DNA of 62,165 nt, counting the filler, from Globobulimina sp. (lineage: Eukaryota): NCBI GenBank assembly GCA_003354225.1. It is 9 parts of 9 records of this genome, joined end to end, with 100 filler letters (N's around TTAATTAATTAA, not from the genome) between each part and the next. Parts side by side here need not be neighbours in the genome. Positions count along the whole stretch, not along the records: positions 27,744 to 34,560 come from PIVH01000233.1; 8 more parts are not named here. One strand, 5' to 3'. Under the pieces are notes generated by a model that saw only the letters and a list, made by a program, of their open reading frames with translations, was not told the DNA's origin and made no database searches. A program made the position numbers and the translations under genes. Below are positions 2,617 through 55,428 of the stretch, piece after piece (position 1 is the stretch's first letter; every line of letters begins with the position of its first letter).

Positions 2617-3867
2617 ATGACAAAAGAATTTTATCCATTGGGCCAGGCGCCTCAGATTGGAGTAGTGCCCAAGTTCATGTTAGCGCATTGCATCCGCCAA
2701 AATCGTTTTGGAGAACCGAAGGAGGCTCTACAAATTGAAAAAGTGGAGGTCCCTTCAGATCTTGAGCCTTATGAAGTCCTGGTCTATGTAATGGCCGCCG
2801 GTGTGAATTACAATGTCGCTTGGGCATGCAGCGGTGGCCCTGTGGATGTTATCAATTATTGTCATAAAGGGGATCATCCAGATAATTTTAACATACCCGG
2901 AAGTGATGCAACAGGGATTGTATGGAAAACAGGTTCTGCAGTTACAAAGGTAAAGGTTGGGGACGAGGTCATTATTCATGGATGTCGTTGGGATTATGAT
3001 GATCCCCATATTAAATCGGGCAAAGACCCCGGATTGGCACCAACTCTTCACATGTGGGGATATGAAACCATTTATGGTGGATTGGCACAGTACACTCGGG
3101 TACATGACAATCAGTGCCTGAGGAAACCTAAACACCTACCATGGGCATCGGCTAGTTCTTTGATGGTCAATGGTGCGGCTGCCTATCGAATGCTTCATCA
3201 CTGGTCCGACAACATCGTCCAACCGGGCGATCCTGTATTAATTTGGGGAGGTTCCGGTGGATTGGGGTGTATGGGAATACAGATTTGTAAAGCCGCTGAT
3301 GCTCTTCCTGTAGCTGTTGTTTCTGATCCCGACAAAGAAGACTTTTGTAGAAACCTTGGGGCAGTAGGTGTGATCAATCGAAATGATTTTAACCACTGGG
3401 GAGTGCTTCCCCACTGGAAAAATCGAGAAAAATATCAAGGATGGGTCGCTGAAGCTAGGAGGTTCGGCCGGTCTTTTTGGGAGGCGTTGGGAGAAGCACG
3501 CAATCCTGCTATTGTGTTTGAGCATCCAGGCGAAGCCACCTTGCCAACGTCCTGCTTTCTCGTGGAAATCGGTGGAATGGTTGTTATTTGTGCCGGAACG
3601 TCGGGGTATAATGCCACACTTGATCTCCGATATCACTGGATGCGGCAGAAACGTCTGCAGGGGTCCCATTTTGCAAATAATGAGGAGTGTTCAGCCTTCC
3701 TTGACCTGGTTGATTGCGGAAAGGTAGATCCGTGTCTTTCGCAGGTCTATCCGTTTGAAAATGCGGCGGAAGCGCATCAACTGATGTTTGAGAACAAACA
3801 TCCCCCAGGCAATATGGGTGTATTGGTCAACGCTTCTAATAACAAACAAAAACACTTTAATGATTGA
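2617..3867 (+). CDS. ccr: Crotonyl-CoA carboxylase/reductase (enoyl-CoA carboxylase/reductase)
   Basis: MAAGVNYN, GSDATGIVW, WGYET, VLIWGGSGGLG, VFEHPGEAT, WMRQKRLQGSHFAN; RBS AAGGAG upstream. Confidence 0.95.
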   Translation: MTKEFYPLGQAPQIGVVPKFMLAHCIRQNRFGEPKEALQIEKVEVPSDLEPYEVLVYVMAAGVNYNVAWACSGGPVDVINYCHKGDHPDNFNIPGSDATGIVWKTGSAVTKVKVGDEVIIHGCRWDYDDPHIKSGKDPGLAPTLHMWGYETIYGGLAQYTRVHDNQCLRKPKHLPWASASSLMVNGAAAYRMLHHWSDNIVQPGDPVLIWGGSGGLGCMGIQICKAADALPVAVVSDPDKEDFCRNLGAVGVINRNDFNHWGVLPHWKNREKYQGWVAEARRFGRSFWEALGEARNPAIVFEHPGEATLPTSCFLVEIGGMVVICAGTSGYNATLDLRYHWMRQKRLQGSHFANNEECSAFLDLVDCGKVDPCLSQVYPFENAAEAHQLMFENKHPPGNMGVLVNASNNKQKHFND

Positions 3868-6849: not shown

Positions 6850-6949
6850 NNNNNNNNNNNNNNNNNNNNNNNNNNNNNNNNNNNNNNNNNNNNTTAATTA
6901 ATTAANNNNNNNNNNNNNNNNNNNNNNNNNNNNNNNNNNNNNNNNNNNN
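6850..6949. other. Artificial contig spacer N44-TTAATTAATTAA-N44; identical copies at 13784-13883, 20718-20817, 27644-27743, 34561-34660, 41469-41568, 48376-48475, 55272-55371
   Basis: Identical 100-nt N-padded linker with stops in all six frames; flanking segments fall steadily in length (6834, 6834, 6826, 6817, 6808, 6807, 6796). Confidence 0.98.
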
Positions 6950-13533: not shown

Positions 13534-14282
13534 TGACGTTGTACTGTATTGTTCTCCCAGCAATTGTCATACCAGTCAACGTTTATGATTTGTAGGATTT
13601 GGGCGGAGTTTTTCAGTCAATTAATTGTATGCAATCGCCTTCATTTTGCATCCACACAGCAGGTATGTACTTATCCTGTATTATTTTATATGCTGTACCA
13701 TAATGTTTTTCATTTATCCTGAAACTAAGTGAGAAATGATCAAAATCCAATATCATATCAACGACTGTGTTGTTACAACACTTNNNNNNNNNNNNNNNNN
13801 NNNNNNNNNNNNNNNNNNNNNNNNNNNTTAATTAATTAANNNNNNNNNNNNNNNNNNNNNNNNNNNNNNNNNNNNNNNNNNNNAATTGTAAGGAAAAGTT
13901 GGTCCAGTAATATTTGGTCATATTGGTCATAGCGTCTGCATCTTATCCGATACTCCACTGAATACCATATAAGCAATATGCTATCCGTAATAAATGATCA
14001 CAATTTTTGATTATTTCCTTGGTATTCTTATCTTTGTTGTGTTTGTTTTAAAATCAAGTTCCATAACTTTGAGTTTAAAATCAATTTTCGAAAATCAATA
14101 ATATGAATTTAAATCAATAAATGAAACACAAAAAACAGGTTAAAAAACAAACATTGATCACATACTAGGATTCGAATACTAGGTCAACTTCGAATACTAG
14201 GTTGAAAACCACTACAGCTAACCCAAAAACCTTGCCAATCACAAAAGAAGTGTTTAGAAGTTTAAGCCTAAAAAGTCAATTG

Positions 14283-20717: not shown

Positions 20718-20817
20718 NNNNNNNNNNNNNNNNNNNNNNNNNNNNNNNNNNNNNNNNNNNNTTAATTAATTAANNNNNNNNNNNNNNNNNNNNNNNNNNN
20801 NNNNNNNNNNNNNNNNN

Positions 20818-27523: not shown

Positions 27524-28142
27524 AATCAATGAATACTGATATAAAAAGGATTCTATTTTTGTTTAAAAATTAATGTCATCGCTAGATTCTTCTTTTGCGC
27601 GAGTTTGTTATTCAAACACTAGCAACAAAAAAAACTTTAACGGNNNNNNNNNNNNNNNNNNNNNNNNNNNNNNNNNNNNNNNNNNNNTTAATTAATTAAN
27701 NNNNNNNNNNNNNNNNNNNNNNNNNNNNNNNNNNNNNNNNNNNATATTAAAAATAGATACTCACAGAAAGTATAAATATATTAATGGGGAAATGGGAAAG
27801 AATTGAACTTTCCTTCAATGGACCACTCATCTCAACACGTATTGGTCTGACTCTTTCGGGTAAAATCCAGGAACAAGTGTCAGAGGGCTTTATTCCTAGA
27901 ATTAACAATTTGATTTATAATTAGATATTCAGATAAATAATCTGAAAATAAGAATTATGAATCAATCGCTTCCCGTCTGTTGAATCCCTGTGTGTTGAGT
28001 GAATTTGTGATCTTTATTTATAATTTCATAAAATTTACGTTTCTCAAAATGTAAAACAGATTATTATTTGGAAAATAATAATTTGTTTGTTGTTAATGTT
28101 AAATCAAGCACTTTGAATGATAATTGTCCCTGATGTGTCAAT

Positions 28143-29422
28143 TTAAGCTTGGAATAATTTCTCCACAGTATCACCGTCCCATGGATTGAAAATTTGCAAT
28201 TTGCCTTTACTTTTATCAATATTCATTTTTCCAGGGCGATTTTTGCCGTGAATCATTTCAAATGGTAATATCATTAATTGTTTCTCTGTGAATAAGATGT
28301 AACGGGTCGCAACATGGGGGAGGTTTTTAATTGACCATACTACATATCGTATAACTTTAAGTAAATCAATACCCTGTGCATGACATAACGATGTAGCGCC
28401 AATTCTAATGGAATATGTTGGATATGCTTTCGGATTTTTCATGCCAATGATTTTTACAAATTCAAGCATGATTGTTGATAATTTTGCAGGTGTCCAAATA
28501 CAGCCATTTGTGTCTACAAAAATGTAGTTTGATTGAGCTACACCTAAATTTGATAATCGTTTCTGATGTAATCTCCGTTTTGAAAAATTTGTGGGATTTC
28601 TTGCACATTTTAAGTCGTTAAAATATAACGTTCTTCTTTGTTTATATATTTTGTACATTTTAAAGAAATCCAAAATACCGCAATGACAAATTTTGTGATT
28701 CTCACAAATCGGAGGTGACATGAAAATTTCTTTCGGAGTATTCCTAAATTCTTGATTTTTGAACCAATGGATAACTAATTTCATATACTGATTTATGTAT
28801 TTTTTATGGGTATCATGAAATGTAACATCTCCCCATTTTAAACCAGTTCTGATAATTTCCCATAGTTCATTCTCCGTATTGTCAGTAAATAAAATCTCAG
28901 CGGGTCTACTAATTGTGAAAAACACAATTAATAATAAAAAAGCCTTCAGCAATGTATCTAAAGGTGCTGTATTCCATGTTTTTGGGGTGATTTTTATGTG
29001 TTTTAAATATTTGACTATCCAGTGAATACGCAAAGGTAATCTAAGTTTGCGTACCTTAGAATGTAAACCGATCATAGTATCTCTGATTGTTTTATAAAAA
29101 TTATCTTCAAAAAACATAGGTTTCTCACCCATTGATTTCACCCACCATGAAAGTGCTGAACACCACGTAGAATAAGAATTGCATGAACCTAATCTCATGG
29201 TTCTGTCATACATCCAATAAATAGCTACTGAGGGATTTATGAAAGGGACGAAAGGATCGTTTCCATGCTCAATACTATAACCCCACCAATCTTTTAATAC
29301 AGAGACATAATTCTGTTTTGTTGAGATTCTTCTTGATCTGAATAGATCTTTCAAAATTTGTCTCGTTGTCTGTGGGTCATTTCTCGCTATTCGTTTTTTC
29401 CAAATTAGACGACGAGTGTGAG
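28143..29422 (-). CDS. Tyrosine recombinase of the retroelement (probable terminal exon)
   Basis: ISRPAEIL (R), WFKNQ (K), YSIRIGA (HxxR with H>Y), VVWS (W), ATRY (Y). Frame stays open upstream to the acceptor TTTTTACTTAG at 29423; no ATG near the 5' end. Confidence 0.88.
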
Positions 29423-29480
29423 CTAAGTAAAAACAAAGAGAATTTTATTTTTGGCGTGAAAATAAAACTTTTATAAACAG

Positions 29481-31219
29481 TTAAATGTCGTCTAAGTCTT
29501 TGAGCAACTTCAACTCATAATAATAATCTAAATTTGTTGGATATGGATCAATTTGTAAGTGGAACAGATTTACTATGTCATAGAAACGCTTCCAATCGAA
29601 TCTTGAGAGTGAATCTGATAAACCATTAAAAGAAGATGGGATAAATTCAACTCTCAAATCAATACAATATGTGCACATTAATAACACAATCTCTTGTATG
29701 TATTCCATTAAATTTAGACTGCCTGACCAATGTTTATAGATACTAAATAAAACAGATTTATTATCAATATACAATAATAGTTGTCTGCCGGTTAGAATAT
29801 GTCGAAAATTATAAAGTAGCATTATCACAGCATGAGCTTCTTGATAATTTATATGCATTTGGCGATGATTTATACCAAATAAATTTGGATAATCAACAAA
29901 TTTATATGCACCAAAATGAGAACCAATTATGAAGCCTCCGCCAATATTACATGCATCCGTGGCACCTGTAATTGTAATTGATGGCTTATTTAAGATCGAT
30001 TGCATTGTTACTACTTTCATAAAATTTGAATATTTTAACCAAAATCGAAAATCTATGATCACAGCATCAGGTATCCAAAAAATGTGTTTTTTTAATTTGG
30101 GATTTTTCCTGATCTTTTTATGAATTAATTTCAATAATCGGTAACATAAAATCTTTGCAGGTTTACGGAATTGGGACCAATGCATTATTTTCCCGCAAAT
30201 TGATTCTAAAGCTGTTCCCGATGCAAATCTATATTGGATCATCAATGTCAATCCTTTAACTAATTCATCATATTTATTTTGTGGTATGTTAACATGTTTT
30301 GATCTGAGATTAAATCCAAAACCATGTACAACCCCTTTATAGATAGCATTTTCATCTTTTTCATGGGAGACAGTGACACCTAATTCATAGCACATTTGAT
30401 CAAATCTATCAGCCATTTGTTGTGCTTCAAAGGCACTTGATGCGGCTAATAAAAAATCATCAATATGTACCAAAATTCGGTTCTTTTGATGTGGGGATAG
30501 ATAATTATGTTCACAAATCCATATTAAGATTTCAGCAAAACGTTGACAGTTTGCTGCAGCTGATGCCACACCATATGCTTGACGCATATCTGCGAATTTC
30601 AGACCAAATATACAATATTGTATATAGGCGGTGTCATTTGTGGCAAGTAGGAGTTGTCTGAAAGCATCCTTCAGATCTCTCAAGGAAACATAATCAAATT
30701 TTATTAGAATCTCAATATATTTACGTATATTTGGTAAGGTGGGGATTTTACATTGTTCTTTATCAATCACGTTATTTATTGACACTTTATGTTTAGTTGT
30801 AAAAGAACCATGTCTTGCAACTCTAATTTCAGTCATTAGTTTAGTTTCATTGTTGCGTTTTGGAACGCACAATAAATTTAAATTATAGTGTGCTCTTTTT
30901 TTGATTGGTGTAATATATGCTTTCTTCGCCTCCTTTACCATACGTGTTAAGATTGCCTTTAAATCCCTCTTATCTCTCACAATATTTCTTACAGTCTTAC
31001 AGAGCTTAGCCGGATTTCGCTCTTTTAACCATAAGGGATAACCCTCCTCAATAAATTTAATTTCGATCTCTCCATTTGGATGTTCTCGGAGATAGTTACG
31101 AAATAAATCTATATTGAAATGATGCGGAATAGACGGGGGTTGAACCCATAAATGAACTAATTTTTGGAGTAAATCGGCGCATTCAGTGTCAATTTCTGCT
31201 ACTTTCGGGAGGATATAAT
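29481..31219 (-). CDS. Reverse transcriptase-RNase H, DIRS type (probable terminal exon)
   Basis: RT: DLKDAFRQL, AYGVASAA, VHIDDFLL, HGFGFN. RNase H: TDAC, INYQEA, YIDN, NGLSDSLSR. Acceptor TTCTTTTATACAG at 31220. Confidence 0.92.
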
Positions 31220-31277
31220 CTGTATAAAAGAAACAGTTTAATAAAGTTTTAGAAACGTTTCGGATTTGTGACAATAG

Positions 31278-31437
31278 ATGCGATTATGAGTATGTTCGAC
31301 ATGACATTTTGTGACAAAATGTCATGTCCTATGCGATTATGAGTATGTTGCAGCTGAAAAACATGACATTTTGGTCACAAAATGTCATGTCCTGTGTGAT
31401 TATGAAATTGTAGCTGAAAAACCTGACATTTTTTGGT
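31278..31437. repeat. Three tandem ~53-63-bp units, two containing a long palindrome
   Basis: Units start ATGCGATTATGAGTATGTT (31278, 31331; degenerate at 31394). Palindromes: GACATGACATTTTGT-G-ACAAAATGTCATGTC (31298-31328) and ACATGACATTTTG-GTCA-CAAAATGTCATGT (31361-31390). Confidence 0.88.
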
Positions 31438-31493
31438 GAGAATATTTAATTAAATCACGAATTAAGAGTTTAAAGTCTAAAAATAAATAGTGA

Positions 31494-32494
31494 TTATTTA
31501 AAAATTTCTGTACATTGTGGTATGCGATGGGTTTTTGAACCACATAAACATATATGTAAACGTACAATATTGCCAGATTTGCACGCTAAACCTCTTGCGT
31601 AGCATTTCTCATCATCCATATGATAAAGTGCACAATAACCAGGTCCTAATTTATATTTTGGTTTTAATCGCGCATTTACAGAATCAATCCATTGATCAAA
31701 TCTTTTAGTTCCTGTTTTCTTTCTCTCTTTCTTTATTTTTGCTGTTTCATATGTTGGTTTGTCATATTTTGTTTTCTTGTCAATTTTGATCGAAGTTGTT
31801 GCTTTTTCATGGTCCGCAATTTGTTTTTGTGTTTTTAACAATTTGATATGGTCATATTTGCTAAACATTTGTTGTAACCAGAGATTATCAACAGTTTGAT
31901 TTTGCAATTTTTCAATATCTAATTTTTGTCTCAAATGGGTATTTCTTGAGGCTAAAACAACAGATAATTGTTTTTTATTTGCCAATTCCATTGATTCATT
32001 AAAAAATAAATAAAACAATTGTTCATTTAAAGCGGTGTCATAAACTAAGGTCTCAAAAATGATCCTACATTGTCTCCAATCATGAATTGCTACATTTAAC
32101 ATCATAATATATCGATTTAACTCCGAAGTTGGGTCAATATTACTCGATTTTGATGTATATAATTTACTCAATGCTTTTATCAATTGCGATCTGTATTTAT
32201 TTGCGTAGATTAACCACACATTTAATAATCGCTGAATTTCACGAAAAAATGTGAAAACACTTGATTTATCATTAAATATATTTGCAATCGTTGTTGTAAT
32301 GTTTGATCGTGTTAAATGTTGTGTGTTTTTCTCAAATTTAATCAAATCCAACATAATATCCGTCATAGACTGTGTAGAAATTCTCCATACAAACATTAAC
32401 AATCCAGTTTCTGCAATTTCTTTTTTCTCTTTTCGAGATGTTTTTGATTTCTTCTTTTTACCACTCATTGAATCATCAGAATCGACATCAGAAT
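31494..32494 (-). CDS. Gag-like C-terminal region with a Cys/His zinc finger (probable terminal exon)
   Basis: C-terminal CALYH...C...C...HICLCGSKTHRIPQC resembles DIRS/Ngaro Gag fingers. Frame is open upstream of ATG 32468 to the acceptor ATCACAG at 32495. Confidence 0.7.
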
Positions 32495-32838
32495 CTGTGA
32501 TAATTATTATGTGGTTTATAAAGAGGGAAAATCTCAGAAATTTTAGTGTTTGTATTTGTCATTGTTGAGCATACAATGTACAGTCAGTATTTTTAAAGGT
32601 GCTCATATTAAAAAGTATAAAAGAATATGCGTTCATTTTTGGATAGCAATCATTTATTTGACGCATGATATCATGATTCGTCCTATTTTGCTATACCAAT
32701 AAATCACACAATTAATGAAAAATAGAATTACGGAAAAGTAAACAAACATGTTTCTCTCCACAGAAACATGTCAAACATAGTAAATATAACACAAAATACG
32801 GCCAAAGCCATACAAACGATTATAGCTAAGCAGCTTAG

Positions 32839-34407
32839 CTATGCGGCCCAATGACACAAAGGACAGACCCACGTACCTTGTATTTCACTCACAACGCCCT
32901 TTCCCGTCTTCCTACTCATCATTCGTAGATTGGTTGCCATCAAACTCGATTTGTGTTGGATTTTGTTGGTGTGATTTGCAATTAATTCGAAACCTAATGT
33001 TGTTTTGTCAACATGGTATTCTTTGCTCCATCGATGGATTCCGCGTTGATCGGAATTTAGCATTTGTTCCACCGATTGCTTCTGTGGCGAATTGTTGTTA
33101 TTTTGGTTTGAAATCACTTTCCCTAAATTCAAGGAGAGTGAGTCTTGTCGCTGTAATATCTGTTTCAAAATTGAATTATCAGTGGTTCCAGACTCACCAC
33201 CCTCCATTTCCTCACTTTTCAATTCCAATCTGCGTCTTTTATGTGGACGATCTGAATCTAACTCGTCCCATTCGCTCCGTGCATGAATGGTTCCACTCAA
33301 TGCAGGATTTTTGATAATTTTATCATTCTTTGTGATAAATAATTCCTTCGGTATGACATCTAAAACCGTGTATGCTTTAATTCGTTTTCCATTTTCATCA
33401 ATATATCCTTTGTCCACTAAAAATTTAAATTGTTCAAAATAAACATCAATGACTAATTTGCGTAATTCAGTTGGGTCAGAAACGCCTGACACTCCTTGAA
33501 AACGATCGGATTTTGGCGGTAAATTATGGTAAACACGGTAATTGACTAAGAATTGGATCATGCGATGATTATACGCATTGAATTCATGTTTGTAATCATT
33601 ATAATTTACGGAAGTTCGTTTGGCGAATCTTCCAATATTTTGTAAATATTCTTTTCTTGTTTTAATGACTAATTTGTATCTTTTCTTGAATCCTGATTCA
33701 TATTCTTTTGCTTTGTCAGCTTTGACAAAATTCGAGCTCACAAATTTTTTAATCCTTGCACTCGTAATCGTTTCTGATGATTTCTCATCGGATTTGATCT
33801 CAATGTCTCCCGAATCCATTCTAAAAATGTCATCATCATCGGTGGGATAATCGACATCTTCCTCTTCTATGCTGTCCGCAATTTCCTCCTCTTCTTCATG
33901 CGTGGAATCTTCGTCATGCACAGATTCTTCATCTCGTGGACGAACTCGTGACTCCGCTTCCGGTGATTCCGGGAAAGTCCATGCATCGATAATATCATTG
34001 ATTGCAAATTCTCTCTCACGACTATCCCAATTTTTCTGTCTTTTGGTTGAAAGACTTTGATAAAAGAGGTCGGTATTTGTTACTAATGTGTATAATTTGT
34101 GGGTGTTCGGTGGCGGGTCATCGGGGTTTTGCTCTTCATAACGTTGAGCGACCCGAAAGGCATCGCCTAATCCTTGTAAATCAACATTTAAACCTTTTTT
34201 ATTGCCATAAGGTAATATCAAATGTTCTTTGATTAACGCTGCAATCGCAGCAATGGATTGACTCCCTAATTTGCCATCACGTGCCGCTTTTTTAATTCCT
34301 TTAATTATTGTGAATTGCGTAAACGACGTCGTTTGTTTGTAATAAAATACGTCTTGATCGAGCATAGGCCCGTTGACGTAGACTTTGCGTGTTGTGCTTA
34401 CTGGCAT
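32839..34407 (-). CDS. Retroelement ORF1 (probable Gag N-terminal part / shared leader exon ending at 32877)
   Basis: 522-aa ORF with an acidic tract and a basic KRRR cluster; donor AAG|GTACGT 12 codons before its stop. Confidence 0.65.
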   Translation of the reverse strand: MPVSTTRKVYVNGPMLDQDVFYYKQTTSFTQFTIIKGIKKAARDGKLGSQSIAAIAALIKEHLILPYGNKKGLNVDLQGLGDAFRVAQRYEEQNPDDPPPNTHKLYTLVTNTDLFYQSLSTKRQKNWDSREREFAINDIIDAWTFPESPEAESRVRPRDEESVHDEDSTHEEEEEIADSIEEEDVDYPTDDDDIFRMDSGDIEIKSDEKSSETITSARIKKFVSSNFVKADKAKEYESGFKKRYKLVIKTRKEYLQNIGRFAKRTSVNYNDYKHEFNAYNHRMIQFLVNYRVYHNLPPKSDRFQGVSGVSDPTELRKLVIDVYFEQFKFLVDKGYIDENGKRIKAYTVLDVIPKELFITKNDKIIKNPALSGTIHARSEWDELDSDRPHKRRRLELKSEEMEGGESGTTDNSILKQILQRQDSLSLNLGKVISNQNNNNSPQKQSVEQMLNSDQRGIHRWSKEYHVDKTTLGFELIANHTNKIQHKSSLMATNLRMMSRKTGKGVVSEIQGTWVCPLCHWAA

Positions 34408-35612
34408 CTTGTTATAATATTGATATTATAACGTTCTTTGCTTGGGAAACGTTAGTATGCACTTCGCGGAAAAGAGGTTTTTTGTTTGTAAATTAAACTA
34501 AAGACTACTAAAACAAAAAACACTTTTGTTGCGAAGTTATTTTCAATACCTTGATGATTANNNNNNNNNNNNNNNNNNNNNNNNNNNNNNNNNNNNNNNN
34601 NNNNTTAATTAATTAANNNNNNNNNNNNNNNNNNNNNNNNNNNNNNNNNNNNNNNNNNNNAGTCTGAGGGGGTGAGGTGAGGGGAGTTAGGTGACCATAC
34701 AATATATCCAACAGAAAATAAAATTCAAAATAATATCTTAAAACAAAAAGTAACTTATATAGTAATATGAAACAAAATGAAACAACATTCAACAAATCAA
34801 AATTAAGGAATGTATGCTATAATGTTATAATAATAAGAGTTGGATATAAAATACACAGAAGGTAATGGACGGAAAGAGAATGGACAAAAAGCACAAATTA
34901 AAACAAATAAGAAAGATATTAAAGCTCAATAACAAAAAACAAAAAAATATAATTAACACAAAAAAAACCACCAAAGCAAAAGGCAAAAGAAAACAACATA
35001 TTTACGTTCTTGTTATCGCACTAAATTTTTTGTAAGAAAAAAAATTCAAAATCAATATAGAAAATGTGAACAAATACAACCAAACACCGAAATAAAAGAA
35101 AGTCATATTGAAATCATATATTTTGTCATAAAATTTGTAATATAAAAAAAACCCGCTTTCAAAAAAAAACAGAACGAAAATATTTGTGAAAAAAAATAAA
35201 AAAACACACAAAATAAGAAAATACAGCAGATTTTGTTGCATTTAACCTGTTAAGTCTGGTCTGTGAACAAACTACAAAAAAACAACAAATCAGAAAAAAA
35301 TACAAAATAAGTTTGCAGAATAAGGTCTAAAAAATCACACAAAAATATCGTACGAGAAAGAGATATTAAAATGGAACACAAAAAAAATAATCAAAAGATA
35401 CATGAAAACATTAAGTTAAATTTTATTTGATTTTAAAAATTATAACTCAACGATGAGCAAATACAAAAAAAAAATAAAAAAAAGAAGCAGAATCGCTCAT
35501 TTTATCTTTTCTTTTGCATCTTACATAGAATAAATAACTATAATTTCAAGCTAATAAACAAAGATTTTATTTATTTATTACAAAATTGCAGAAAAAAAAT
35601 ACAAAAAGTAAT

Positions 35613-37730
35613 TTAGATATACGGTGGAAACGTATTAATATTGGGATTGGCGGAAAACATATGAATATCATTATGATTCTCAGTAAACATTAACCCGTTA
35701 AACGGCATCGCAGATTGATTCCCGTCCATATCGTCCTCGTCATGTTCAAGCACATTATGTTTGCCATCCATCTGCGTGTCGTGTATATCAATGTCGCCAT
35801 CCTCGCGTTTCTGGTTATGAATCAACTGGAAATTATTCAAAACGGGCGGGGTATCGGAGGCCGATGTGGTGGGCGTATTGGTGTTCAAATTGGGCGTGTT
35901 ATTATTTGTATTCTGTGCATTGGCAAAGTCGGCGGCTAGCGAGTACCCAACGGATGGGGTGGTATTAAAAAAGTGATCGCTCACACTTTGATTCGCGGCG
36001 TGCATACCAAATTGTTGCTGTTTGTGTGCATTTTGCAGTGTAACAAATGTATACTATGTATGGTGTATATGTACCTGATTTATGCGTTGATGGTCGATGC
36101 GAGCCTCCAATGAATGTATTCGTGTAAGTAGCTGATGGATGATATCCTTTTGGGAGTTTTGAGTATCGGTCAAGCGATTTAATTGCTGTACCAATTGGTT
36201 ATACTGTCTCGCTGGCAATAATACATTATTTATATTGTTAAAGGTGCCGTTGGGCGGTGGCACCGGCAAATTGTAACCAGATTGGTTTGAATTGGAGGTC
36301 GACGGCGAAACTATACCGAACTGCGCAGAATTGAAGGTACTGTTACTCGAACCGGGTGACACCACTTGCAAATTATTACTGTTATTACTCAATGCAGCGT
36401 TATTATTGTTGTGTTGGTGCACATTTAAGTCGGACACAGTGAATATCTGTTGGTTGCCGCCCACATTGAAGGAGAAAGAGCCGCCGTCGATTGTACCGTT
36501 ATTATTATTATCCGCGTTATTGAGGTCATTGCTGGCATGGCTGTCCGCAGACAACGCCGGGATTTGAGGTATTTGTGGCATGGGCACAGTGGGCAACGGT
36601 ATGGTCGGTATAGTGGGCATAATGTTGTTAGGCGGCCCGAAGCAATGTGCTTTACTCATCTCTGCGCCGTGGCCGTGGCCGTTGCCATGCGAGTTGCATT
36701 TAATTAGCATCGTTAGTCTCTGGAGACATTCTTGGTATTTTCCCTGCAGTGCACACAACAAACGTTATAAATGAATTATAAAATAAATGTAATGTACGGT
36801 TTAACTTAACTTCAAAATACGTTGCTGCCTCGGAAGTATGTGATGGAAATTGAGAGGAATACGGATGATCGATGGCGTATTGCTGGAATATTTTAGAGGT
36901 GGTGCTCTTTGCCGTTTTGATGGAATTCTCGATCAACAGAGGCGTTTTTCGCCCGGTGTCGTTTAATGAGATCTTGGCGGAACATAAGCGAGCTAAATAA
37001 CCGTATCTTAAGGTTGTAGATAATAAGTTGACGGCAGATTTGTTGGCCGTGAATATAGCGGCGGAATGTTGCTCCGCATAGGACTCAGAATGATGGATCA
37101 TTTCAGGGAATAAAGTTAAGGCATAGTTGGGGGCTTTGCGCCCATTTAACCAGTTTTTCGCTTTGTATTCGAACTCTGTGTAGGATTTGGGCATATATTG
37201 CATTTGTTGCGTTTTTAAACCGGTCCATTCAGCTAAAAATCGTAAATGTTTTAAGGGATTGGACACTTCGAACACGAATTTGGGATAATCAGAGCAATCG
37301 ATATTGGCCTCGCGCAGGATTTGGTGGAGTTTGTCCATGGTTTTCTTGGTGGTGTCGTTGACGAATTGGCTCCAAAACACGGCGCGCGTTTTGATATTTT
37401 TGCTTTCCATGTCCTGTGGGTTTTAGATGTACGAATCCGGTGCAAACACAGTTTATGGACAAATATGTATATTTACAATGACACAAACAGGTGTATGGTC
37501 GGATGTATTTTGTATATTTCACATACGATAAGCATTTGGCGACAGGTTGTGACCCATGTTTTTGTCTGTTTTGTTGTTTATATTTATATTTGTTTTTGTA
37601 TAACGAGTATTCACATATATAGACATACATCATTTGGGTGCATCTGTGGCACATTTTTAGTGTTTATATTTCTCATTCCAAGCATAACATTTTTAGAGTT
37701 CTGTTGGAATGATTGAGCCACAGAAGCCAT
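35613..37730 (-). CDS. Five-exon hypothetical protein with N/Q/P-rich low-complexity C-terminus and coiled coil
   Basis: ORFs 36700-37410, 36054-36761 and 35613-36005 plus two small 5' exons join at phase-0 GT-AG junctions; no family recognised. Confidence 0.6.
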
Positions 37731-41238: not shown

Positions 41239-41568
41239 GTATTTATTATATATTATAATCATAATATTAAATCAATAAATCAGATTTTTGTTTTTTGCAA
41301 CTGACCAAATTGTCTAACTTGTACAAATTAGAATTTTTGTGATGGTTATATTAATTACTAAAATTATTTTGCAATTGGCATAGTTTATTTTGTTGTTACT
41401 GGATTCGCAGTTATCTTTTGTCGTTGTGAAAGAAAGTGAAAAACTTTGTTTTTAGAAACACGATACCGNNNNNNNNNNNNNNNNNNNNNNNNNNNNNNNN
41501 NNNNNNNNNNNNTTAATTAATTAANNNNNNNNNNNNNNNNNNNNNNNNNNNNNNNNNNNNNNNNNNNN

Positions 41569-48037: not shown

Positions 48038-48475
48038 CTAACATACTATAATTGTATTGTCACAAACTGTATATGTTTACTGTTAAATTTTGAGTATTAA
48101 AGAGTGAAAAATTAGCATTTTGAAGTGTTTTTATTTTTGTATACTGTAATCTGTTTTAAAACCAGTTTACTTTTTTCATGGATTGTTTTGATAGTTATCA
48201 TCTCTGATCATGAACATGTCTGGATGGAAAATAATCACTATTGAGCCGAGGATTTTTGCTCAAATCCGCCGCTTTTCCCAGCAAACCGCTCACCAAAATA
48301 TAATGGTATCAGATGAAAGCTGAGATGGAGCTTTATCAAGTTATGGAATAATTATTGTATCGGATTTTTATTATTNNNNNNNNNNNNNNNNNNNNNNNNN
48401 NNNNNNNNNNNNNNNNNNNTTAATTAATTAANNNNNNNNNNNNNNNNNNNNNNNNNNNNNNNNNNNNNNNNNNNN

Positions 48476-55163: not shown

Positions 55164-55428
55164 TTTTGGATTGGTTTTGCGGCGATTTATAACTGCGGTT
55201 TTCCGTTCAATTTGGGAAGGAAAATAGGTTAATAATAAAATGTTAATGGTTCCCGATGAAACACAACCTTTNNNNNNNNNNNNNNNNNNNNNNNNNNNNN
55301 NNNNNNNNNNNNNNNTTAATTAATTAANNNNNNNNNNNNNNNNNNNNNNNNNNNNNNNNNNNNNNNNNNNNAACATCACTTCTGACATTATCTCAACATT
55401 TAGCAACTAGGATGAAACCCTGTGATCC

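Follow-up and report, generated by a model that had tools for sequence, protein, structure and literature searches.

A 62,165-nucleotide stretch of DNA from Globobulimina sp. (GenBank assembly GCA_003354225.1), here called the window, contains at positions 27744 to 34560 one copy of a multicopy tyrosine-recombinase retrotransposon that is Ngaro-like in architecture. Its proteins are encoded in four separate open reading frames (ORFs), and the data obtained suggest that these are expressed by alternative splicing. A single 5' splice site at the end of ORF1, which encodes the N-terminal part of Gag (Gag-N), would be joined to one among three 3' splice sites, extending ORF1 in frame into the remainder of Gag, into the reverse transcriptase (RT)/RNase H, or into the recombinase. 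On the basis of sequence comparison, the use of one shared ORF1 donor for all acceptors, and hence the formation of Gag-N fusions, was assigned a probability of about 0.6.

The four ORFs are located on the minus strand, do not overlap, and each have their own stop codon (from stop to stop, 32839-34425, 31494-32558, 29481-31283, and 28143-29444; Table 1). Only ORF1 has an initiation codon close to its 5' end, seven codons into the open frame, both in the window and in the related locus L001 described below. The first Met is residue 115 in the RT ORF and residue 78 in the recombinase ORF. In the window copy, ORF2, ORF3, and ORF4 share a common frame with 6 and 2 in-frame stops between them, and all three frames are closed in both intron 1 and the ORF2-RT spacer. 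The donor at the end of ORF1 (CAAG/GTACGT) is the second best GT on the whole contig strand under a generic donor matrix, and its exon end at 32877 lies 1,531 nt from the ATG, which places it in phase 1. Each downstream ORF is open back to an acceptor of the form pyrimidine-A-G (YAG), namely, CAG before 32494, CAG before 31219, and TAG before 29422, and in each case two codon nucleotides are left, so that all three are also in phase 1. A preliminary description of this contig had identified it as a tyrosine-recombinase retrotransposon with four such ORFs, this donor, these three phase-1 acceptors, and no ATG near the 5' ends of the RT and recombinase ORFs; all of these points were confirmed, the identity of the element by an RT/RNase H ORF together with a Cre-like recombinase ORF.

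According to the proposed mechanism, a single primary transcript would begin 5' of ORF1, which alone has a start codon. Joining of the phase-1 donor (32877/32876) to 32494 would produce the full Gag of 843 amino acids (ORF1 plus ORF2), joining to 31219 an ORF1-RT/RNase H fusion of 1,089 amino acids, and joining to 29422 an ORF1-recombinase fusion of 936 amino acids. Unspliced RNA would encode ORF1 with a 12-residue tail, and, because the copies retain their introns, this unspliced RNA must be the template for new copies. It is a matter of speculation that the fusion would bring the enzymes into particles and have roles in packaging and stoichiometry.

To assess the acceptors, metagenome contigs were scanned with a profile, giving 59 loci. 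L001 to L014, with 34 to 70% RT identity, were counted as the same kind of element, and L015 to L059, which have distant RTs in long pol-type ORFs and probably belong to other retroelement classes, were omitted from all counts. Gene order was identical across L001 to L014 in every locus holding at least two genes. The RT acceptor was found as a phase-1 YAG in 10/10 loci that include the 5' end of the RT ORF (nine of them distinct, L005 being nearly identical to L006), 10 to 11 codons before a conserved Asp, with the RT peptides lining up flush from the acceptor codon. Similarly, the recombinase acceptor was a phase-1 YAG in 12/12 loci, 11 of them distinct. At both acceptors, the Y, A, and G were invariant although the two encoded residues vary; at the RT site, these were T, I, L, or S followed by D, E, or G.

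The background frequency of a phase-1 YAG per codon junction was 2.9% (146/4,981) and 2.3% (82/3,626). In the recombinase codon alignment, the first column pair carried the pattern in 11/11 sequences compared with 7/10 for the best internal pair. In the RT codon alignment, the site was divided by a one-residue gap between two column pairs, with five and four sequences. The occupancy filter skipped the first of these pairs, and the best internal pair scored 5/9. Nucleotide identity between the window and L001 rose from 0.37 to 0.78 across the RT acceptor, and in-frame stops were present 1 to 4 codons upstream of the acceptors in L001, L002, and L003 (for RT, 2 to 4 codons in L001 and L003). Thirty further RT homologues included upstream residues, and 23 of them fit the acceptor pattern when examined by eye, the other 7 being unclear. 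Conservation of the acceptors is therefore well beyond chance, and the RT and recombinase acceptors are likely to be real 3' splice sites.

The arrangement of the downstream ORFs also bears on other ways of expressing them. RT and recombinase were in a common frame in only 3/11 loci, plus the window, and spacer lengths ranged from 58 to ∼430 nt across loci, with every acceptor in phase 1 with respect to the ORF that it precedes. Since the relative frames seldom agree, readthrough or a fixed frameshift was excluded as the mechanism of the family. The same variability in spacer length and frame argues against translation of RT and recombinase from unspliced RNA by internal entry, non-AUG initiation, or termination-reinitiation, in which the YAG would be a by-product of other constraint. 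Such a mode would suit the recombinase ORF of L010, which opens with an ATG abutting the RT stop (TGA-ATG), and the non-overlapping ORFs of Ngaro elements in general, whose translation is unexplained (PMC3266345). However, the Y-A-G is invariant against varying encoded residues, conservation begins exactly at the AG, and five gag introns in L003 end in the same style of acceptor (ACAG or TAG after pyrimidines), so that translation from unspliced RNA was considered improbable.

The separate ORFs could instead reflect decay, with ordinary mutations breaking a once continuous or overlapping gag-pol-recombinase. Some paralogous copies are indeed dead, as two contigs carry stop mutations, and ORF1 of L001 is frameshifted. 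However, the four-ORF layout recurs in 14 loci, down to 34% RT identity, substitutions between copies are mostly synonymous or at third positions, and in the 92 RT homologues any extension upstream beyond the acceptor site is limited to 49 residues at most. A search with the RT of proteins of >1,050 amino acids, albeit a weak one, likewise gave no longer fused RT form. Decay of a continuous frame is therefore highly implausible, and splicing at the YAG sites remains the preferred explanation.

The donor was found at the homologous place in L001 (CAAG followed by GTAAGT) and L003 (CAAG followed by GTACGT). An exhaustive search detected 33 homologues of ORF1, compared with 1 in a near-length search, and 20/33 were inspected. 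Seventeen were of genomic type and reached the C terminus, and all 17 ended in Gln or His followed by Gly and then a short unconserved tail. This ending of (Q/H)-G plus junk tail is, as judged from the sequences, the footprint of the donor. The other three were P0107, which stops earlier, P0113, a repeat protein, and P0108, which combines ORF1 and ORF2.

Approximately 15 nt directly after the donor were also conserved among the window, L001, and L003, and this motif was found nowhere else in the 62-kb window. In the homologues, it translates as WVC or LGL depending on the frame, and in L003 it lies behind a stop codon. Because it is conserved irrespective of frame, the constraint on it appears to act at the RNA or DNA level; that it controls splicing or marks the unspliced RNA is speculation. 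A hairpin enclosing the donor was observed in the minimum-free-energy folds of the three loci and in the alifold consensus but was rejected, as its energies were no better than those of shuffled sequences (z of +0.4 to +1.3); only three sequences were available, with no useful covariation. Separately, P0113 (848 amino acids, predicted) was found to contain 13 tandem copies of a ∼27-residue unit resembling the junk tail that is read from the window intron immediately behind the donor, WV(C/S)PLCHW, and the donor-proximal intron segment thus seems to exist somewhere as a tandem array.

The junction between ORF1 and ORF2 was met directly as a continuous protein in another organism. P0108 is a 1,175-amino-acid EukProt record labelled Nonionella stella, a foraminiferan (PMC10772126), in which ORF1-like and ORF2-like parts are in one frame and intron 1 is absent. 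P0108 reads NDIQDIDS, that is, IQ followed by D and an acidic stretch, at the point corresponding to the predicted Gln510-Asp transition of the window. On this comparison, ORF1 and ORF2 make up one Gag protein joined at the predicted point, whether P0108 is a transcript or an intronless copy. Paralogous copies had non-triplet insertions in intron 1 at 32767-32779, and one lacked 245 nt of it (joint 32499->32745). The ORF1-ORF2 intron is therefore very likely to be real.

More introns were found in L003, where gag is interrupted by five GT..AG introns of 56, 52, 64, 222, and 61 nt, all in phase 1, the fourth being the homologue of intron 1 in the window. The exon pieces were collinear with the ORF1 profile (E values of 0.0026, 2.3e-6, and 1.5e-4). 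Together with the RT and recombinase acceptors, L003 therefore has seven sites in one phase. About 30% of introns are in phase 1, and with that proportion and independent phases, seven same-phase sites would be expected by chance in ∼2 in 10,000 cases. The uniform phase fits the proposed design because any donor could then be joined to any acceptor. For the family as a whole, read as a foraminiferan-type (rhizarian) one, the chances are roughly even that all introns are in phase 1, that the conserved major donor gives rise to Gag, Gag-N/RT, and Gag-N/recombinase, and that the element adjacent to the donor balances splicing against unspliced RNA.

With the acceptors likely to be real, the identity of their partner was considered. 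Sequential splicing from ORF2 to RT to recombinase was rejected, as neither ORF2 nor ORF3 was found to end with a conserved phase-1 donor. Over the final 30 codons of RT, phase-1 GTs are absent from the window, L003, L004, L008, L010, and L014, and the phase-1 GTs at the end of ORF2 are only the TGT codons of Cys residues, which are lost in L001 (last knuckle Cys) and L007 (first Cys).

Alternatively, the acceptors might be joined to another donor, in the 5' leader or elsewhere, or to an untranslated upstream exon, with the enzymes produced unfused in the manner of foamy-virus Pol. An ATG directly follows the acceptor in 4/22 instances (RT in L005 and L006; recombinase in L003 and L010), in keeping with this arrangement, but no ATG is nearby in the other 18/22, and at several loci the first Met is 72 to 138 residues in. 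The five donors of L003 are all in phase 1, so phase by itself does not single out the partner. Conservation of phase 1 would, however, serve no purpose if no coding exon lay upstream. A candidate GTAAGC is present right behind the second ORF1 codon in the window, but it is in phase 0 and thus out of frame, and the only donor conserved in the family, with its own flanking motif, is the one at the end of ORF1. A different partner was therefore judged unlikely.

A spliced leader added in trans at each acceptor, resolving a polycistronic transcript, was also considered, as spliced-leader trans-splicing is known in the rhizarian genus Paulinella (PMC6053224). According to the same source, it was not found in Bigelowiella, Plasmodiophora, or the foraminiferan Reticulomyxa. 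Such a leader would have to bring an AUG and keep phase 1, and the 20-base conserved part of the Paulinella leader has no ATG (PMC6053224). As a matching cis donor is present in the element, trans-splicing was considered very improbable. The use of the RT and recombinase acceptors is thus inferred, and their pairing with the ORF1 donor is inferred more weakly.

Several observations weigh against a shared ORF1 donor. The junctions in the source organism are predicted from comparison of genomic sequences. The weak search of proteins of >1,050 amino acids returned no ORF1-RT fusion, and none of the 20 inspected ORF1 homologues runs on into RT or recombinase. A 510-residue leader on both enzymes would be unusual. 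The introns required for RT and recombinase would be 1,657 and 3,454 nt long, compared with 57 nt for the one putative host intron found here, and the ORF2 acceptor of the window lacks a pyrimidine-rich tract (0.45 versus 0.47 overall). Instead of deriving from a spliced transcript, P0108 may represent a genomic copy that lacks introns, although its EukProt set is probably a transcriptome. In lineages with an ATG directly after the acceptor, including L010 with its TGA-ATG, unfused RT or recombinase is possible. In L004, L007, and L010, alignment was used to place the acceptors, which lie 34 to 51 codons into open frames. In L001, AAG takes the place of YAG at the ORF2 acceptor, and the ORF1 frameshift of this locus has been noted above. 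L001 (70% identical) has the frameshift and the AAG at about 1919-1928 and 2511-2512, with the donor and the RT and recombinase acceptors retained, and is probably a decaying copy. Among the 15 of 22 contig joints from three runs that were listed, none corresponded to 32877>32494, 32877>31219, or 32877>29422; these assembly contigs are of unknown library type and are uninformative on splicing.

On balance, the proposal of alternative splicing from a shared leader exon in the preliminary description was upheld in part, for the sites, their phase, their conservation, and, as a continuous protein in another organism, the ORF1-ORF2 junction (equivalent to 32877>32494); the junctions from ORF1 into RT or recombinase are predicted ones. 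The expectation that relatives would conserve the donor and acceptors in phase 1 held (RT, 10/10; recombinase, 12/12), and no conserved ATG of their own was found for RT or recombinase, start codons for each ORF being what the same description had named as evidence to the contrary.

The proteins themselves were examined for domains and folds. Pfam gave no match for ORF1, ORF2, or ORF4. The ORF1 model had a predicted local distance difference test (pLDDT) score of 70.6, with two confidently folded domains. No fold was recognized for it with Foldseek (best E value, 2.9), and VIA-align gave a best Z score of 5.1 to helical bundles, effectively covering residues 223 to 386 only, so that no fold was assigned. 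ORF2 has an acidic/basic start, a helical body, and Cys/His knuckles at its end, the knuckles being retained in L001, L003, L005, L007, L012, L013, and P0108; its homologues were in L001, L005, L007, and the C-terminal half of P0108. ORF3 gave weak Pfam matches, both below the cutoff, to RVT_1 (E value, 5.3e-6; 26.7 bits versus a cutoff of 29.6) and RT_RNaseH (E value, 2e-4; 21.9 bits versus 24.8). Its 92 homologues of similar length include many annotated with PF00078/PF17917, and the catalytic-type DDF and RNase H columns were invariant in the RT alignment. No methyltransferase domain was found in ORF3, which ends ∼60 residues past RNase H and leaves no space for one.

The ORF4 model had a modest pLDDT of 59.4, with the C-terminal 97 residues poor. 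The top Foldseek rows were Cre (best E value, 4.1e-4; probability, 1.00), followed by XerH, XerA, the Tn1549 and lambda integrases, topoisomerase IB, and a few unrelated rows of low probability. A seven-member profile matched integrase 3nkh in the box II region (E value, 0.02). The alignment had an invariant Arg in an ISRP stretch, an invariant Trp-Ser, and an invariant C-terminal Tyr, columns that would correspond to catalytic roles. The box II Arg is replaced by Lys in 4/7 aligned members: in the box II-like stretch (window ORF4, ∼340 to 350), Arg was observed in the window, L002, and L011 and Lys in L006, L007, L009, and L014. The usual His position is occupied by Tyr or Phe. If the box II alignment is right, the make-up of the active site is unusual for a tyrosine recombinase.

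In run X1, 125 pieces of the element or its paralogues were found, of which 18 were at least 99% identical, 9 were at 95 to 99%, 14 at 90 to 95%, and 84 at <90%. Among the 40 best supported differences between copies, 23 were at third codon positions; 23 were synonymous and 17 were not. Non-triplet indels among the paralogous copies were located in the 5' leader, intron 1, and the ORF2-RT spacer. Compensated +1/-1 indel pairs were found once in the RT ORF and once in ORF2, and one uncompensated 1-nt deletion, at 31008 in the RT ORF, occurred in a single contig of low depth. These patterns indicate that the element family is multicopy and under selection. No relatives were detected when prokaryote genome contigs and viral contigs were scanned with the RT profile.

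Within the ORF2-RT spacer, 31298-31432 consists of ∼60-nt tandem units that contain perfect palindromes, with 15-nt arms flanking one base. Depth in run X1 was ∼250 at 31313/31314 compared with ∼25 for the element, and the palindrome piece is therefore much more abundant than the element itself. It is either a separate small inserted repeat or a site common to many subfamilies. The palindromes are lox-like in shape, which is suggestive only.

The element ends are probably split direct repeats. In Ngaro elements, the ends have the arrangement A1-[ORFs]-B1A2B2 (PMC8547959). In run X1, depth was raised in part B (61.7 over 27744-27971), and one contig linked 34442 to 27973 in element orientation (A-to-B), with 30 letters on the shorter side only. 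A second contig linked 34560 to 27744 with 21 other letters between (B-to-A); as the contig end is thereby joined to its own start, the unit is cyclic or tandem in the assembly graph. Both joints are suggestive of the junctions expected of A1-[ORFs]-B1A2B2. L009 contains an exact 103-nt direct repeat (2955-3057 and 3387-3489, spaced by 432 nt) that begins 183 nt past the recombinase stop and runs into the contig end. This matches the B1...B2 pattern of split direct repeats and parallels the inferred part B of the window, which begins 170 nt past its own recombinase stop. Within part A, 34461-34537 holds an inverted repeat of 27 nt that is imperfect (78% complementarity) and has a loop of 23 nt. 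A repeat search of 27744-34560 found no inverted repeat between the contig ends, where the true termini are undefined.

Comparison with known systems placed the element closest in layout to Ngaro elements, such as those of Cafeteria burkhardae, with which it shares the order of Gag-like ORF, RT/RNase H, and tyrosine recombinase, a length of ∼6 to 7 kb, the lack of a methyltransferase and of ORF overlap, and, probably, ends of the form A1-[ORFs]-B1A2B2 (PMC8547959, PMC3266345). The preliminary description had started from the premise that DIRS/Ngaro elements have long overlapping ORFs; this is often true of DIRS1-like elements, whereas Ngaro elements are usually without overlaps (PMC3266345). 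Since non-overlapping ORFs are normal for Ngaro, they are not unusual in themselves; what is unusual is the lack of start codons together with the conservation of splice sites. Unlike Ngaro elements, the element has its Gag split by an intron and its RT and recombinase ORFs starting at conserved phase-1 3' splice sites with no start codons. Introns or natural splicing of tyrosine-recombinase retroelements are unmentioned in the available text of PMC3783388, PMC8547959, PMC3266345, PMC7192593, PMC9210276, and PMC6681497. No account of DIRS/Ngaro splicing, or of such elements in foraminifera, was found in the literature, and the founding Ngaro papers may hold an earlier mention. DIRS-1 of Dictyostelium and DIRS1-like elements share the RT/RNase H and tyrosine recombinase and likewise lack protease and DDE integrase. 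In DIRS1-like elements, the terminal repeats are inverted, and there is an internal complementary region, a methyltransferase domain, and in many cases extensive overlap between ORFs (PMC3266345). None of these was seen in the element, whose termini are undefined on the contig.

Retroviruses use one major 5' splice site with several 3' splice sites, and foamy-virus Pol is made from its own spliced mRNA. The element resembles them in its conserved 5'-side donor, in having an acceptor before each downstream gene, in the unspliced RNA, which would serve as the genome, and in the conserved motif just past the donor, where retroviruses place packaging signals. It differs in that the donor is at the end of a 510-codon ORF and phase 1 is common to every site, and its products would be in-frame Gag-N fusions, unlike retroviral products with their own start codons. 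Genomic copies of Penelope-like elements retain spliceosomal introns, implying an unspliced template, but these elements belong to another RT clade and have a GIY-YIG endonuclease and no recombinase. Ogre elements contain an intron, and ORF4 of rice tungro bacilliform virus is fused to a leader short ORF. In these two, as in Ty1/copia and murine leukemia virus (MLV), it is splicing and not frameshifting that regulates or creates the products, and in some cases a 5' ORF is fused in frame to a distal one, as proposed here. They differ in being long terminal repeat elements, pararetroviruses, or retroviruses that have protease and DDE integrase, and none is known to use one donor for Gag completion, RT, and recombinase. 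The products shaped by splicing include the subgenomic gag RNA of Ty1/copia and the SD' product P50 of MLV (PMC5580714, PMC10496198).

The window consists of nine unrelated contigs, in descending size from 6,849 to 6,794 bases, placed end to end via linkers of the form N44-TTAATTAATTAA-N44 (sixteen 44-base N runs in pairs), which have stops in all six frames. As the contigs are artificially joined, synteny over the linker points is meaningless. The element is the sole occupant of its contig, and neighboring genes are therefore uninformative about it. An altered genetic code was considered and rejected: ORFs on neighboring contigs are broken by both TGA and TAG, and at least one break resembles a short in-frame intron. 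Three further pairs of ORFs in the window, at 1455, 54792, and 58591, abut at a single TGA or TAG.

Table 1. Features of the element and of the window (positions along the whole window)
Feature	Position	Strand	Remarks
Whole contig bearing the element	27744..34560	-	Linker-bounded on both sides; 6.8 kb
5' non-coding part, read as end of terminal repeat part A	34442..34560	-	Joint 27973->34442
ORF1 coding exon, Gag N-terminal part	32877..34407	-	ATG 34407; 510 codons + 1 nt
Predicted major 5' splice site GTACGT, exon side CAAG, phase 1	32871..32876	-	Exon end 32877
Conserved intronic motif, core GGGTCTG, then CC..TTT stretch	32855..32870	-	Directly after donor
Predicted intron 1, 382 nt, GT..AG	32495..32876	-	6, 9, and 9 stops in the three frames
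ORF2 exon, Gag C-terminal part	31494..32494	-	333 codons including donor G; stop 31494-31496
ORF2-RT spacer	31220..31493	-	All frames closed; ends in pyrimidine-rich tract + CAG
RT/RNase H exon (ORF3)	29481..31219	-	579 codons including donor G; stop 29481-29483
RT-recombinase spacer, 58 nt	29423..29480	-	Second in-frame TAA; ends in pyrimidine-rich tract + TAG
Tyrosine recombinase exon (ORF4)	28143..29422	-	426 codons including donor G; stop 28143-28145
3' non-coding part, read as terminal repeat part B	27744..27973	-	Starts 170 nt after recombinase stop
Putative host intron, 57 nt, GTACAT...AACAG	36018-36074	-	TAG within otherwise continuous ORF, neighboring contig
Linkers	6850-6949, 13784-13883, 20718-20817, 27644-27743, 34561-34660, 41469-41568, 48376-48475, 55272-55371		N runs

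How Ngaro-type elements translate their non-overlapping downstream ORFs is unexplained in the literature examined, and this family offers a concrete and testable answer. If the proposed mechanism is confirmed, dependence on alternative splicing would be demonstrated for the first time in a tyrosine-recombinase retrotransposon. The family would also be among the rare retrotransposons in which several ordinary introns are retained, a condition that would constrain the choice of RNA for copying and the place where this happens. The one-donor, many-acceptor arrangement of retroviruses would then have been invented independently, here to build in-frame fusions, and retrovirus-like splicing would replace frameshifting, protease processing, and separate start codons within the DIRS order. 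The uniform phase 1 provides a clean sequence signature for finding similar elements elsewhere. For annotators, the family serves as a warning that ORF-based calls, including all 92 database RT proteins considered here, would miss the real gene structure.

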